The notes under the pieces are model-generated. The model made no database searches. It was not told the DNA's origin and saw only the letters and a list, made by a program, of their open reading frames with translations. Positions 5,489 to 64,000 of a stretch of 64,000 nucleotides of DNA are shown here, piece by piece (position 1 is the first letter of the stretch; each line of letters opens with the position of its first letter). Both the position numbers and the translations under genes were made by a program. Origin of the DNA: an uncultured Gemmatimonadaceae bacterium (lineage in GTDB: Bacteria > Gemmatimonadota > Gemmatimonadetes > Gemmatimonadales > Gemmatimonadaceae); assembly GCA_964537775.1 (NCBI GenBank), contig CAZICQ010000015.1, forward strand, positions 5,935 through 69,934, in the 5' to 3' direction.

Positions 5489-5817
5489 TCGAGCGGCTGT
5501 TGCTCACACTGCGCGCCCTCGCCGCCGGCGGCGGTGTAAGCGACGCTCGCCTGCAGCGACTCGCGGGCGACTACCTCGACGCGTACCGATTGATCGTCGA
5601 CTGTCCACAGCTCGAATTAGGGTCGACCGCGCGCGCGGCCGTGGAGGATGTCGCGCTCGTGGCGGAGCGCATTGGCCAGGGGGCGGCCACGGAAGCAACG
5701 CGCCGGGCCGGCGCCGCTGCCGCCCGCCGGGCCCTGTTCGCGCTCGGTGAAGCGGTGAGCACAGGGGAGTCGCCCGCGGTCGCGGACGGTGCTATCCTAG
5801 ACCGCCCTCAAGGCTGA
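5485..5817 (+). CDS. Hypothetical protein (about 110 aa)
   Basis: GTG at 5485 overlaps the msrB stop (GTGA). Continuous GC3-rich frame, part of track ORF 5233..5817. No recognisable motif. Confidence 0.45.
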
Positions 5818-5884
5818 CCGTCTCGAGCGCCGGTGCGCGAGCGGTCCGGCCAGTCCATCCACCCGATCCGGAACAGCGCGAGCC

Positions 5885-7579
5885 ATGTCGCTCTGTCGGG
5901 CGTTGTGCCTCGTTCCCGCCGCCGTCGCTGTGGCGGCCGCGCAGTCGACTCAACGCAATGCCGATATGGCGCACCGGTCAGCGGTGTACGCGCCTAACGG
6001 GATCGCGGCGACGAGTCAGCCGCTGGCGACGTCGGCGGCGCTCGCGGTGCTGCAACGTGGCGGCAATGCCGTCGACGCGGCGGTGACGGCGGCGGCGGTG
6101 CTCGCGGTCGTCGAGCCGATGATGACCGGCATCGGTGGTGACATGTTCGCGATCGTGTGGCCGGCCAACGAGCGGAAGCTGGTCACGCTGAACGCGAGTG
6201 GCCGCGCCGGCGCGGGCATGACGCGCGAGGAGCTGCTGCGCCGCGGGCGCACGCATATCGTCGGTCGCAGCGCCGAATCGATCACGGTACCGGGCGCGCT
6301 GGCCGGCTGGGACGCGCTGCTGAAGCGCTACGGCACCATTTCGCTCGCCCAAGCCCTCGAGCCGGCCATCCGCTACGCCGGCGAGGGCTTCCCCGTTACG
6401 CCTGTCATCGCCGCTGATTGGGCAGGTGCCCGCGATGTGCTGGTGCGCGATGAAGGTGGCGGCGCCCGTGCGACCTTTCTCATCGACGGCACGCGCACGC
6501 CGCGGGCGGGCGAATGGTTCCGCAATCCCGATCTCGCGGCGACGCTGCGCGCCATCGCGGCGGGCGGCCCGAAGGTGCTGTACGACGGCCCGTTAGGCGA
6601 GACGATCGTTGCGCGCGTGCGTGAGCTGGGCGGCTTCCTCACCATGGACGACCTGCGGCAGAACGTGCCCACGTGGGAGACGCCCATCTCCACCACATTC
6701 AAGGGCTATCGAGTTTGGGAGCTGCCGCCGAACAACCAGGGCATCGCCACGCTCGAGATGCTGCGGATGCTGGAGCCGTACGATCTGTTGGCCATGGGTC
6801 ACAACACGGCCGCGTATCTCCACCTGCTGATCGAGGCAAAGAAGCTCGCGTACGCCGACCTCGCGCGCTTCGTGGGCGATCCCGAGCATCTGGACGTCCC
6901 CGCGACGCATCTGTTGTCCGACGCCTTCATCGCCGAGCGGCGCACGCATCTCGATCCGCGGCGCGCGCACGAGCACCCCGCGCCCGGGCCAGCCGTCCTG
7001 GCCAGCGAGACCATCTATCTCACCGTCGCCGACAAGGACGGCAACATGGTCTCCTTCATCAACAGCCTGTTCGACGAATTCGGATCCGGCGTCGTGGTGC
7101 CCGGAACCGGCTTCGCGCTGCAGGACCGCGGTGCCGGCTTCACCCTCGAACCTGGGCTGCCGAACACCGTCGCGCCGGGCAAGCGGCCCTTTCACACGCT
7201 CATTCCCGGCTTCGTCACCAGGCCCGCGGCCCAGATGCGGCCGGACGGCAGCGGTGACGAGCCGTACATGAGCTTCGGTCTGATGGGCGGCGCGATGCAG
7301 GCGCAGGGACACGCGCAGTTTCTGTTGAACCTCCTCGTCTTCGGCATGGACGTGCAGCAGGCGATCGACGCGGCACGCTTCCGCCACCTCGACGGCAATC
7401 GTGTGGCGATCGAGACGCCGGTCCCCGACAGCGTCCGCGCGGCGCTGCGCGCGCTCGGGCACGAGATCATCGATGAGCATCACACGGCGTTCGGCGGCGC
7501 GCAGGCGATCATTCGGCTGCCGCACGGCTGGGTCGCCGGCTCGGATCCCCGCAAAGACGGACACGCGGCCGGCTATTGA
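5885..7579 (+). CDS. ggt: Gamma-glutamyltransferase (paralog 1), secreted
   Basis: 564 aa with a signal-like N-terminus. GGT-family blocks: GGNAVDAAV, MTGIGGDMFA, the processing-site region ETIYLTVADKDGNMVSFINSL, and GLMGG. Confidence 0.88.
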   Translation: MSLCRALCLVPAAVAVAAAQSTQRNADMAHRSAVYAPNGIAATSQPLATSAALAVLQRGGNAVDAAVTAAAVLAVVEPMMTGIGGDMFAIVWPANERKLVTLNASGRAGAGMTREELLRRGRTHIVGRSAESITVPGALAGWDALLKRYGTISLAQALEPAIRYAGEGFPVTPVIAADWAGARDVLVRDEGGGARATFLIDGTRTPRAGEWFRNPDLAATLRAIAAGGPKVLYDGPLGETIVARVRELGGFLTMDDLRQNVPTWETPISTTFKGYRVWELPPNNQGIATLEMLRMLEPYDLLAMGHNTAAYLHLLIEAKKLAYADLARFVGDPEHLDVPATHLLSDAFIAERRTHLDPRRAHEHPAPGPAVLASETIYLTVADKDGNMVSFINSLFDEFGSGVVVPGTGFALQDRGAGFTLEPGLPNTVAPGKRPFHTLIPGFVTRPAAQMRPDGSGDEPYMSFGLMGGAMQAQGHAQFLLNLLVFGMDVQQAIDAARFRHLDGNRVAIETPVPDSVRAALRALGHEIIDEHHTAFGGAQAIIRLPHGWVAGSDPRKDGHAAGY

Positions 7580-61813: not shown

Positions 61814-62548
61814 ATGACGACACGCCGCGAGTTCGTCGGCACCACCGGAGCATTGCTCGGCGCCGCGCTGCTGCCCGGCCGCGCCCTGCATAACGAGTCA
61901 CGCCGGCGTGGCGCGCCGGACGGATCAGTCGTGCTCTTCCAGGGCGACTCGATCACCGATGCCGGGCGCAATCGCACGATCGCCGATCCGAACAGCGCCG
62001 CCGCGCTCGGCACCGGCTATCCGTTGCTCGTCGCCTCGGCGGTACTGCACGCGCACCCGGAGGCCGGCTTCCGCTTCTTCAACCGCGGCGTGAGCGGCAA
62101 CAAGGTCCCTGACCTCGCCGCGCGCTGGGATGCCGACACACTGGCGCTCGCGCCCGACATTCTCAGCATTCTCATCGGCGTGAATGACATCTGGCACAAG
62201 TTGAATCATGCGTACGCGGGCACCGTGCAGGATTACGAGCAGGGCTACGATGCGCTGTTGGCGCGCACGCGCGAGGCGCGGCCGCGGCTCCGGCTGATCA
62301 TCCTCGAGCCGTTCGTGCTCCGAACCGGCGCCGTGAACGACCAGTGGTTTCCCGAGTTCGACGACCGCCGCGCAGCTGCCAAGCGGGTGGCGAGCCGCGC
62401 CGGCGCCACCTTCGTTCCGCTGCAGAGCATGTTCGACCGTTTGGCGGCGACGGCGGCGCCGCAGTACTGGGCCGCCGACGGCGTACATCCCACGCCGGCC
62501 GGCCACGAGGCCATCGCGGACGCATGGCGGAACGCCGCCGGTCTCTAA
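61814..62548 (+). CDS. SGNH/GDSL-family hydrolase with a Tat-like signal
   Basis: MTTRREFVGTTGALLGAALLPG twin-Arg-like signal. Block I LFQGDSITDAGR. C-terminal DGVHPTPAGHEAIA catalytic D..H block. Confidence 0.85.
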   Translation: MTTRREFVGTTGALLGAALLPGRALHNESRRRGAPDGSVVLFQGDSITDAGRNRTIADPNSAAALGTGYPLLVASAVLHAHPEAGFRFFNRGVSGNKVPDLAARWDADTLALAPDILSILIGVNDIWHKLNHAYAGTVQDYEQGYDALLARTREARPRLRLIILEPFVLRTGAVNDQWFPEFDDRRAAAKRVASRAGATFVPLQSMFDRLAATAAPQYWAADGVHPTPAGHEAIADAWRNAAGL

Positions 62549-62549
62549 G

Positions 62550-62795
62550 GTGACCGCGTCACCGCGACCCGAACGGTCGGAGGTGCGGCGGCGATTCCTG
62601 CAGCTCGTGCTCTCGGTTCTGATTTTCGACGCGGCCGTGATCGGCATGTGGTATGTCCTGCGCATCAGGGAAGCGCCGCCGCAGACGCAGCTCTATTTCG
62701 GATTTGGTTGGATGCTGTCGACGCTGCTCGTCGTCGGCATCGGACTGAAGCGCTTTCACGCGGCGAGGAGAGCGGCGCTCAGGTCGCGTCGCTGA
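62550..62795 (+). CDS. Small membrane protein (81 aa, two TM helices)
   Basis: GTG start 1 nt after the preceding TAA. Hydrophobic segments LQLVLSVLIFDAAVIGMWYVL and FGFGWMLSTLLVVGIGL. Confidence 0.5.
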   Translation: MTASPRPERSEVRRRFLQLVLSVLIFDAAVIGMWYVLRIREAPPQTQLYFGFGWMLSTLLVVGIGLKRFHAARRAALRSRR

Positions 62796-62821: not shown

Positions 62822-63379
62822 GTGCGCAGACTCGTCGTCATAGTGGACCAACTTCCCGCGTGGGCTTTTGTCGCCACCGCCATCCTGGTGCTCGGCGCCG
62901 TTCGGCTCGCGGGCTCGGTGGCCTATCTGGGACGCAACAGCGGCGGTGTCGAGCTCTCGCGCCTTCTCACCCTCGCCGCATTTCTGCTGCTGTTGATCTT
63001 CGCGGTCAGACGCCGTCAGACCAGCGTCATGCACGGCGCTCTCCAGGTGCTCGTCGCCGTCGCCGGCTCCAGTTTGCTCGGAATTGCCGCGGTCTGGCCA
63101 CTCCTCCCTCGGCACCTGCCGATCTCGCTGGTCAACGTGTTGCAGGCCGACGCGGGCAGTCAGGTGACGCTCATTCTGTTCGGCCTTCCCGTCGCCACTA
63201 TGCTTCTATGGCTGTCGCGCCGCTGGGGCTCACACTCGCCTGTGACCGAACGCCGCTGGCGCGTGGTGATCCAGATGATGCGCGAACGTGCCGAGCGGCG
63301 CCGCCGGCCGCGCGTCAATGCGACTGTCGCTGAAGGGGGAGGGGGAGGGCCGCGCGATGCCAACCAATCAATATCATGA
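62822..63379 (+). CDS. Membrane protein of unknown function (about 185 aa, 4-5 TM helices)
   Basis: GTG at 62822 in frame with track ORF 62648..63379 (start uncertain). The 3' end overlaps the EncFtn-like start by 23 nt. Confidence 0.5.
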   Translation: MRRLVVIVDQLPAWAFVATAILVLGAVRLAGSVAYLGRNSGGVELSRLLTLAAFLLLLIFAVRRRQTSVMHGALQVLVAVAGSSLLGIAAVWPLLPRHLPISLVNVLQADAGSQVTLILFGLPVATMLLWLSRRWGSHSPVTERRWRVVIQMMRERAERRRRPRVNATVAEGGGGGPRDANQSIS

Positions 63380-63671
63380 GCCGCCCGACGAGCTGCCGCA
63401 GGAGACGCGCACCTTCGCGCGCATGATCACTTCGCTCATCGAGGAAGCGGAAGCGATCGGCTGGTACGAGCAGCGGCTCGCCGTCGAGAAGAATGCCGAC
63501 GCCCGCGCCATCATGCGGGACGCGCAGAAGGAGGAGTTCAAGCACTTCGGGATGGATCTGGAATTCCTGCTCCGACGCTCTCCCCGTTGGAAGGAGATTC
63601 TGCAGGGAATCCTGTTCCGGCGCGGCCCGATCGTGGAGCATGCCGAGGAAGCGGAAGAGAAGGCCGACTGA
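63357..63671 (+). CDS. Encapsulated-ferritin-like protein (EncFtn family)
   Basis: ATG at 63357 behind a strong purine-rich SD (gaagggggagggggaggg). HEPPDELPQETRTF..LIEEAEAIGWYEQRL..DAQKEEFKHFGMDLEFLLRRSPRWKEIL..FRRGPI mirrors the EE-x-E-x4-WY and EE-x-K-H ferroxidase ligand pattern of Rhodospirillum-type EncFtn as I recall it. Confidence 0.8.
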   Translation: MPTNQYHEPPDELPQETRTFARMITSLIEEAEAIGWYEQRLAVEKNADARAIMRDAQKEEFKHFGMDLEFLLRRSPRWKEILQGILFRRGPIVEHAEEAEEKAD

Positions 63672-64000
63672 TGCACATCCAGTACGTTGCGTTGTGCGAT
63701 CAGGTGGTGGTAGCGCAGGACGGCCGCCCCTCATTGATCGGCGTCTTCAACGATCTGCAAGTGCCCGCCTTCCCATTCACCCTTCCGCGCCTCGCCTTCG
63801 CCGCCCGTATGCTTTTCACCGCCGACGAAGCGGGACGACAGCACAACGTGGAGCTCGTGATGACGGATCCCTCCGGCCGCGAGATCGGCCGTCCCGCTGG
63901 AGAGATCAACCTGCCTCCCGCGCCGGCGGGAATGGAATCGGTCGCCGTGGACCTGCCGCTGCAGTTCGATCTCTTTCAGATCACCGCCGCCGGCCGGTAC
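63671..64000 (+). CDS. DUF6941-like protein, N-terminal 110 aa (continues beyond the window)
   Basis: The ATG at 63671 shares 1 nt with the EncFtn TGA (TGATG at 63669-63673). Translation is MHIQYVALCDQVVVAQDGRPSLIGVFNDLQVPAFPFTLPRLAFAARMLFTADEAGRQHNVELVMTDPSGREIG.... The frame is open to the window end, so it is absent from the ORF track. The family assignment is from memory only. Confidence 0.6.
   Translation, partial: MHIQYVALCDQVVVAQDGRPSLIGVFNDLQVPAFPFTLPRLAFAARMLFTADEAGRQHNVELVMTDPSGREIGRPAGEINLPPAPAGMESVAVDLPLQFDLFQITAAGRY

Follow-up and report, generated by a model that had tools for sequence, protein, structure and literature searches.

Can a ferritin of the encapsulin-cargo type work without a shell, and, where its gene is translationally coupled to a gene of another family, is that neighbour its partner? 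The question is raised by the last genes of a 64,000-nucleotide (nt) stretch of DNA, hereafter the window, taken from contig CAZICQ010000015.1 (C15, positions 5935-69934) of an uncultured Gemmatimonadaceae bacterium, whose genome assembly (GCA_964537775.1) comprises 3.67 Mb in 97 contigs and is 93.7% complete. An earlier reading of the letters alone, here called the sequence-only reading, had recognised in the window an EncFtn-like ferritin of 104 amino acids (aa) without a targeting tail, followed by a DUF6941-like gene in the place of a shell gene, and had proposed either a non-encapsulated EncFtn with a new partner or a new pairing of cargo and shell. Profile searches, structure models and comparative genome surveys lead us to the reading, to which we give a probability of roughly 0.6, that the protein is a free, probably decameric ferroxidase detoxifying Fe(II), that it tends to replace classical ferritins within this family, and that its coupling to DUF6941 is a local accident.

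Family, fold and metal ligands of the 104-aa protein

The short EncFtn-like ferroxidase gene occupies positions 63357-63671 of the plus strand, from an ATG at 63357 to a TGA at 63669-63671. A Shine-Dalgarno-like GGAGGG (63344-63349, plus strand) lies 7 nt 5' of the start codon, within the 3' end of the preceding 185-aa gene. The deduced protein matches the Pfam family PF22277 (EncFtn-like) with an E-value of 2.4e-22 and 79 bits against a cut-off of 27, over profile positions 1-84 of 85. Its residues 3-94 align with the EncFtn of Rhodospirillum rubrum (5da5, E 3.7e-16), bearing out the likeness stated in the sequence-only reading, and it also aligns with NE0167 of Nitrosomonas europaea (3k6c, E 1.4e-12). 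The NCBIfam model TIGR04535 ('encapsulin-associated ferritin-like protein') gave 87.8 bits, under its 125-bit cut-off; the match spans positions 1-97 of 114, leaving the C-terminal part of the model without an equivalent in the 104-aa protein. The score with NF058679 (38.7 bits) was likewise under the cut-off, which is 90 bits for this model.

The AlphaFold2 (AF2) model of the protein, with a predicted local distance difference test (pLDDT) score of 82, contains helices at residues 15-43, 47-74 and 76-86, namely the two long antiparallel helices and the short C-terminal helix of the half-ferritin fold. Foldseek placed it on 5DA5 (Rru_A0973), 3K6C and 5N5F with target-normalised TM-scores of 0.84-0.89 at 1.5-2.1 Å. 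The metal ligands are conserved as well. Residues E29, E30, E32, W36, Y37, E60 and H63 align with E31, E32, E34, W38, Y39, E62 and H65 of the R. rubrum protein, respectively, and are invariant across 23 homologues. They make up the ferroxidase centre and entry site reported for R. rubrum EncFtn (PMC5012862; bioRxiv 10.1101/785121), in which Glu32, Glu62, His65 and Tyr39 of the ferroxidase centre (R. rubrum numbering) are matched by E30, E60, H63 and Y37. Where bacterial EncFtns have HxxxE ahead of ExxH (PMC11202242), the 104-aa protein and its homologues have D/NxxxE. We hold with high confidence that this is a genuine EncFtn-fold protein and that DUF6941, considered below, is no partner of it.

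Absence of the targeting peptide and of the encapsulin shell

The 104-aa protein ends in ...GPIVEHAEEAEEKAD, with the acidic tail EHAEEAEEKAD that had already been pointed out, and neither a SLGIGSLK-type nor an LxVxxL targeting peptide was found at this C-terminus; a SLGIGSL-type peptide is listed for the EncFtns of R. rubrum and H. ochraceum (PMC11202242). The missing tail is paralleled by a missing shell. In the 93.7%-complete genome no gene matched PF04454 (Linocin_M18, family-1 encapsulin), nothing was retrieved at E <= 10 with a local encapsulin hidden Markov model (HMM) built from Actinomycetota neighbours of EncFtn, and no Phage_capsid gene (PF05065) was detected, PF08967 and encapsulin families 2 and 4 not having been searched for. 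The profile searches proposed in the sequence-only reading thus returned EncFtn and DUF6941 and no encapsulin, and its suggestion of a non-encapsulated EncFtn holds.

Relatives from other organisms draw the same line. A species scan, taking a single genome for each, recovered close relatives in at least 594 species, and the 80 best loci, whose EncFtn core is at least 69% identical, were analysed through six-frame open reading frames (ORFs) checked with HMMs built in this analysis. They split cleanly into 22 long forms with an encapsulin and 58 short forms without one. The long forms, all from Actinomycetota (Solirubrobacterales and relatives), measure 129-145 aa, one of them (L103) being frameshifted, and run past ...GDIVEHGEEAE into a Gly/Asp/Ser-rich linker of 25-40 aa; 21 of the 22 end in a SLGIGSL-type peptide (SLGIGS/G), and in 22 of 22 loci an encapsulin gene (E ~1e-140 to the seed) stands directly 3' of EncFtn. 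The short forms have 101-119 aa, mostly exactly 104, end in ...GDIVEHGEEAEExAD, precisely before the linker of the long forms, and have no encapsulin gene within 4 kb. They come from Gemmatimonadota, Verrucomicrobiota, Bacteroidota, Acidobacteriota, Chloroflexota, Armatimonadota, Planctomycetota and Dormibacterota, from Alphaproteobacteria (including Afipia broomeae ATCC 49717 and Bradyrhizobium), and from a few Actinomycetota. At L103:4001-5203, in a metagenome-assembled genome (MAG) of an uncultured actinomycetotan, the EncFtn frame continues without a stop into an encapsulin N-terminus (MNHLLRSQAPISDAGW...) and is left later; this is either the product of indel errors in a long-read MAG or a natural fusion of EncFtn and encapsulin such as archaea have.

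The absence of a shell extends from the locus to whole genomes. PF04454 had no match anywhere in 33 of the 34 other short-form carriers searched, among them a closed chromosome and 99-100% complete assemblies in 3-4 contigs; in the long-form genomes used as controls, the adjacent encapsulin gene was recovered in three of three. The lone exception, Afipia broomeae ATCC 49717 (L101/G318), combines a 104-aa short form with a family-1 encapsulin at C1:1977811-1978563, away from the EncFtn gene. This strain is cultured and would be a convenient organism for asking whether a short form ever loads. The 2024 review noted that short tails could sterically permit loading and left the encapsulation of such proteins open (PMC11202242); for the present subfamily the survey supplies the answer that nearly all carriers are shell-less.

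In a maximum likelihood tree of the EncFtn core, the tail-bearing proteins form one clade within the subfamily and the short forms of different phyla are interleaved, which speaks for horizontal spread of the subfamily. The tree was built from 100 columns without NE0167, its backbone is unresolved, and neither loss nor gain of the tail is claimed from it. Two further tail-less EncFtns, of 96 and 103 aa (L020 in genome G155 and L021 in G014; PF22277 E ~1e-39), come from the same phylum as the window's genome, and their own genomes likewise lack an encapsulin. They stand apart in the tree from the short forms of the 104-aa subfamily, and since they belong to a distant 'classical' lineage, tail-less EncFtn is polyphyletic. 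A member of that same classical lineage, L019 (G024), has GSLGIGSLRKES and an adjacent shell gene.

Association with the loss of classical ferritins

A search with PF00210, which covers ferritin, bacterioferritin and Dps, retrieved no gene from the window's genome at E <= 0.01; the same profile found its family in 14 of 14 control genomes and in 246 of 301 genomes (82%) of a phylum sample. Twelve genomes of that sample encode a short EncFtn: eight have no PF00210 gene, two have just 22-bit matches to other ORFs, and the remaining two, members of a different family within the phylum, have solid matches. The contrast recurs within genera. Genome G052 has a ferritin and no EncFtn, four congeners show the reverse, and G077 and G251 provide the same kind of contrast. 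In G098, from the same family and another genus, a high-scoring ferritin (E 3e-44) accompanies a broken EncFtn (C206:4936-5188), of which profile positions 1-50 are matched in one frame and 53-85 in another; the pairing of this probable pseudogene with a ferritin fits an either-or pattern.

A second sample drew 301 genomes from the family to which the host belongs; 42 of them, from 19 of the 77 genera, carry an intact short EncFtn. PF00210 was missing in 27 of these 42 carriers versus 39 of the 259 non-carriers (odds ratio 0.10, Fisher p = 1.1e-10, uncorrected for phylogeny or MAG quality). When only the high-scoring class of PF00210 matches was counted, a class drawn from the bimodal distribution of E-values and not from a division into bacterioferritin/ferritin and Dps, it was present in 2 of 42 carriers versus 103 of 259 non-carriers (p = 2e-6, uncorrected for phylogeny or MAG quality). 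This negative association within one family is the first concrete, testable hint at the role of shell-less EncFtn.

The DUF6941 gene downstream

The gene that follows EncFtn starts at 63671 on the plus strand; the window holds its first 110 of 134 codons (63671-64000), and it ends at the window-equivalent position 64075. As first described, the two genes share one nucleotide, in a TGATG at 63669-63673 where the A of the EncFtn TGA is also the A of the DUF6941 ATG, and this overlap is kept in the relative L123. The complete 134-aa protein matches PF22091 (E 2.9e-26, 92.7 bits against 27) over profile positions 1-125 of 125, so that the tentative assignment to DUF6941 proved right; a second paralogue lies at C7:54543-54923 of the same genome. 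Its AF2 model, based on a 130-sequence alignment, is an all-beta sandwich of 11 strands with a pLDDT of 93.9. For this model Foldseek returned only weak beta-sandwich matches (query-normalised TM-score 0.35-0.60), among them a Leptospira protein that is uncharacterised, UNC119/PDE6-delta and the carbohydrate-binding domain of Wzt, and a search of solved structures by sequence gave a chance match alone (E 0.87). No HK97 fold was seen in the model or among the Foldseek matches, and Pfam reported neither PF04454 nor PF05065, in agreement with the earlier remark that the N-terminus does not resemble an encapsulin. The proposed new pairing of cargo and shell consequently fails, the product being a 134-aa beta-sandwich unlike any HK97 shell. 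A literature search for DUF6941 (PF22091) found nothing published.

DUF6941 is present in 269 of the 301 genomes of the phylum sample, EncFtn carriers or not, an EncFtn-like match occurring in 17, and its organism-named matches belong to Gemmatimonadota every time. Orthologues of the window's copy (74-78% identity) usually lie behind amidohydrolase, GMC-oxidoreductase and alcohol-dehydrogenase-like genes, with no adjoining EncFtn. DUF6941 adjoins EncFtn in the window's species and in L123 only, with EncFtns 87-89% identical. It is absent beside the EncFtn of L124 (86% identity), in which the lipoprotein gene that lies 3' of DUF6941 in L123 stands directly 3' of EncFtn, and it is absent from the loci at 77-84% identity (L003-L006, L031, L125-L127 and the P0005 contig). 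Beyond these, DUF6941 was found within 1.5 kb at none of the phylum sample's 11 further EncFtn loci and within 4 kb at 0 of the 80 species-scan loci, from more than 10 phyla. Among the 42 EncFtn carriers of the family, the two genes are adjacent in the window's genome only, and in the other 41 the distance exceeds 3 kb or DUF6941 sits on a different contig. The same paralogue does occur 3.2-4.9 kb upstream of EncFtn in L042 and three genomes of one genus; in L042 four other genes, one on the opposite strand, lie in between, and we read this arrangement as shared regional synteny and not as coupling. The co-occurrence survey suggested by the sequence-only reading therefore shows no link outside a narrow lineage of soil bacteria, and DUF6941 drops out as the new partner. 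The two genes became translationally coupled recently and locally, in that one lineage, and DUF6941 stands outside the mechanism.

The surroundings of the DUF6941 paralogue in L038-L042 (~5500-6700) include a 178-aa gene on the opposite strand and a 115-aa gene, neither of which matches a Pfam family or occurs in the window's genome. The 178-aa gene is 93-95% identical between contigs, as against 75-84% for the genes around it.

Upstream genes and the end of the contig

The EncFtn gene belongs to a tight run on the plus strand, consisting of a DinB-family gene, a GDSL lipase gene (61814-62548, gene call), the genes for a 70-aa and a 185-aa protein, EncFtn and DUF6941; the DinB-family gene is a gene call upstream of the lipase gene. 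The 70-aa protein (62583-62795) has two and the 185-aa protein (62822-63379) four transmembrane (TM) segments predicted from hydropathy, the latter with an Arg-rich tail, and the last 23 nt of the 185-aa gene overlap the start of EncFtn, whose ribosome-binding site also lies within the 185-aa gene. Both small membrane proteins and the overlap of the second with EncFtn had been described correctly from the letters. Neither has a match in Pfam or NCBIfam. Homologues of the 185-aa protein (64-68% identity) stand directly upstream of EncFtn in L123 and L124, that is in three of three members of the narrow clade, which makes it the steadiest neighbour there; the 70-aa protein has a homologue in L124 (61% identity) and none in L123. 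At about 110 other EncFtn loci no homologues of the membrane-protein, GDSL or DinB genes were found. All-versus-all clustering of six-frame ORFs within 2.5 kb of EncFtn at the 80 loci, with frame artefacts set aside, left encapsulin as the only family recurring at more than five loci; the encapsulin gene had first surfaced there as off-frame ORFs.

Contig C15 runs 215 nt past the window, i.e. 140 nt past the DUF6941 stop codon, and these final 140 nt are a dispersed repeat (L002:3010-3150 = C15:70009-70149). Its unit of ~38 nt, GAGCTGCGGACTTCGGACGCTGACCAACTGCGCACCAA, is intergenic, occurs in tandem or inverted copies, has core motifs in more than 50 copies genome-wide and is found at 8 contig ends; it looks like a family of repetitive extragenic palindromic (REP)-like elements. 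The assembly breaks right after DUF6941 because of this repeat, and none of the five independent Logan contigs from this population goes much further: all of them end at the gene or shortly after it, the longest reaching ~30 nt past the stop. The downstream extension suggested by the sequence-only reading accordingly stops within the repeat in this assembly.

In L123 and L124 the EncFtn cluster is followed 3' by a gene for a conserved lipoprotein of ~128 aa, with a signal peptide and a lipobox-like ...LSAC/LSGC (L123:2002-2388, L124:1199-1582). The window's own genome has a copy at the head of contig C20 (C20:209-535), which holds homologues of both the lipoprotein and the p57 genes of L123 and L124; here the lipoprotein gene is oriented opposite to its p57 neighbour. 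A join of C15 to C20 was rejected, since the orientation of lipoprotein and p57 differs and the repeat family is a different one. That second, tandem-like repeat family (GGGCGTCAGCGCC/T... units) occupies C20:1-200. A promoter and terminator scan of the EncFtn locus was uninformative.

Functional interpretation and alternatives

As a free ferroxidase, the two-helix half-ferritin would pair into four-helix dimers, as in the solved relatives, with a di-iron ferroxidase centre at each dimer interface, and a decameric D5 ring would arise from five such dimers. The linker and the SLGIGSL-type peptide, which dock the enzyme inside a family-1 encapsulin, would have been lost or never acquired, and because the organism has no encapsulin, the protein would be free in the cytosol. 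It may oxidise Fe(II) with O2 or H2O2 and in this way lessen Fenton damage; within the family, EncFtn would stand in for the classical ferritin, bacterioferritin or Dps that the genome lacks. A further-reaching proposal is that the tail-less EncFtn of this highly conserved subfamily is a shell-free replacement of ferritin, bacterioferritin and Dps, whose carriers can dispense with every classical iron-storage cage. We regard this as tentative and rather doubtful. If true, the decameric ring, perhaps via its conserved acidic tail, would handle Fe(III) in an undescribed way, maybe passing it to another acceptor or nucleating a mineral without a container.

Several points weigh against the free ferroxidase. 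EncFtn alone oxidises iron and does not keep the product soluble without a shell (PMC8346489, PMC11202242), so the fate of Fe(III) is unexplained for a free enzyme. The experimental record for short forms consists of the unpublished apo crystal structure 3K6C only, and no functional study of them was found in the literature beyond PMC5012862 and PMC11202242. Both EncFtn and PF00210 are present in 15 of the 42 carriers of the family; outside the family the link is weaker, with solid PF00210 matches in 13 of 23 carriers of other phyla, and the association is uncorrected for shared ancestry or MAG incompleteness. Finally, the TGATG with DUF6941 is kept in two species, and local co-expression could matter.

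Two other accounts of what the protein does are each unlikely, to about the same degree. In one, EncFtn would work with the upstream membrane proteins (the 185-aa protein with or without the 70-aa one) and oxidise Fe(II) at the membrane for iron import, export or sequestration. The 23-nt overlap, the position of the ribosome-binding site inside the 185-aa gene and the presence of 185-aa homologues directly upstream in all three clade members favour it, as does the seemingly frequent proximity of EncFtn elsewhere to unrelated TspO, Sulf_transp, TonB-dependent receptor and small TM genes. However, neither membrane protein has a homologue at other EncFtn loci, the flanking membrane proteins of other lineages are mutually unrelated, and encapsulin was the sole recurrent neighbour family across the 80 loci. 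In the other, the di-iron site would serve another job, e.g. rubrerythrin-like reduction of peroxide or oxygen, and the link to ferritin loss would be incidental. The D/NxxxE that replaces HxxxE before ExxH (PMC11202242) would suit such a change, but none of the ferroxidase or entry-site ligands known from R. rubrum EncFtn varies among the homologues, sister proteins ~75% identical are ordinary encapsulin cargo, and the negative association is specifically with genes of the ferritin family.

Readings that give the protein a partner or a shell fare worse. If EncFtn and DUF6941 were a functional pair, the sandwich would bind the ring as iron chaperone, nucleation partner or container, and the TGATG would match their amounts. 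Two species with 75-89% protein identity share the overlap, and L042 and three genomes of another genus have this paralogue at a distance of 3.2-4.9 kb from EncFtn, yet such a pair is very improbable: none of the 80 other-species loci (within 4 kb) or of the 11 phylum-sample loci (within 1.5 kb) has DUF6941, the 86%-identical L124 has the lipoprotein gene instead, and the orthologues normally follow an alcohol-dehydrogenase-like gene with no EncFtn adjoining. Moreover, DUF6941 carries Gemmatimonadota names and occurs in 269 of 301 genomes of that phylum, whereas short EncFtns are spread over more than 10 phyla, and a 134-aa sandwich fold has no cage-forming precedent. We find it hardest to believe that the protein is still encapsulin cargo, with a shell gene among the 6% of the genome missing from the assembly or past the contig end and the acidic tail as a non-canonical docking sequence. 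The 93.7% completeness of the MAG, the break 140 nt after DUF6941, the steric compatibility of short tails with loading (PMC11202242) and the encapsulin elsewhere in the genome of Afipia broomeae leave some room for this. Against it stand the 33 of 34 other carriers without PF04454, 99-100% complete genomes and a closed chromosome included, and the fact that, where a shell exists, the subfamily retains the 25-40-aa linker, normally a SLGIGSL-type end, and an adjacent shell gene. In L123 and L124 it is a small lipoprotein gene, and no shell gene, that comes after the cluster. Across the genomes and loci searched, then, nothing turned up that would put the protein back into a shell or take it out of the EncFtn family.

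Comparison with known systems

Full-length membership in DUF6941 (PF22091) relates the downstream gene to a family with a generic beta-sandwich prediction, whose model weakly resembles UNC119/PDE6-delta lipid-binding and Wzt carbohydrate-binding modules. A functional parallel for EncFtn itself may be found in the IMEF systems of Firmicutes, in which the encapsulins are the primary iron store of organisms lacking classical ferritins (PMC8346489). Like IMEF, the 104-aa protein is a ferritin-superfamily protein from the encapsulin world that occurs preferentially in genomes without ferritin, bacterioferritin and Dps, and by analogy this suggests that EncFtn may take over the classical ferritin role in such genomes. 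Unlike the 104-aa EncFtn, which is shell-less and whose storage capacity is unexplained, IMEF is a four-helix bundle that stores iron inside a large shell.

The protein corresponds most directly to a class already named Non-EncFtn (He et al. 2016, eLife, PMC5012862) and s-FLP in a later review (Eren and Wingfield 2024, PMC11202242), with NE0167 of Nitrosomonas europaea (PDB 3K6C) as the type. It has the short EncFtn fold, no targeting peptide and no associated encapsulin, as that class is described. Common features are a length of ~95-105 aa, the two-helix EncFtn fold with conserved Glu/Glu/His di-iron ligands, a tail of ~10 residues without a targeting peptide and the lack of an associated shell; NE0167 itself is ~40% identical, with a target-normalised TM-score of 0.84-0.86 and a root-mean-square deviation of 1.8-1.9 Å. 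However, NE0167 probably represents another lineage, and by sequence the 104-aa protein is nearer to the targeting-peptide-bearing EncFtn of R. rubrum (E 3.7e-16 vs 1.4e-12). The tails differ too, the acidic EHGEEAEExAD of the present subfamily contrasting with LFTD(E/N)KPIAHE, the tail listed for s-FLPs (PMC11202242). Of the novelty seen in the locus by the sequence-only reading, the non-encapsulated state stands, as a property of a class known since 2016 of which the gene is an ordinary member, and the new partner or shell does not.

With the targeting-peptide-bearing cargo proteins, FLP-TP (Rru_A0973, 5DA5; H. ochraceum, 5N5F), the 104-aa protein shares the fold and the residues of the ferroxidase centre and entry site at ~40% identity, and a sister clade within its own subfamily retains the SLGIGSL-type peptide and an adjacent shell gene. 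It differs from FLP-TP in lacking the linker, the targeting peptide and a shell gene in the genome, and in scoring under the TIGR04535 cut-off. The encapsulin cargo of Solirubrobacterales, which bears the targeting peptide, is nevertheless ~75% identical to it, and this close pair of a long and a short EncFtn offers a natural experiment on cargo loading and on what the shell contributes to iron mineralisation.

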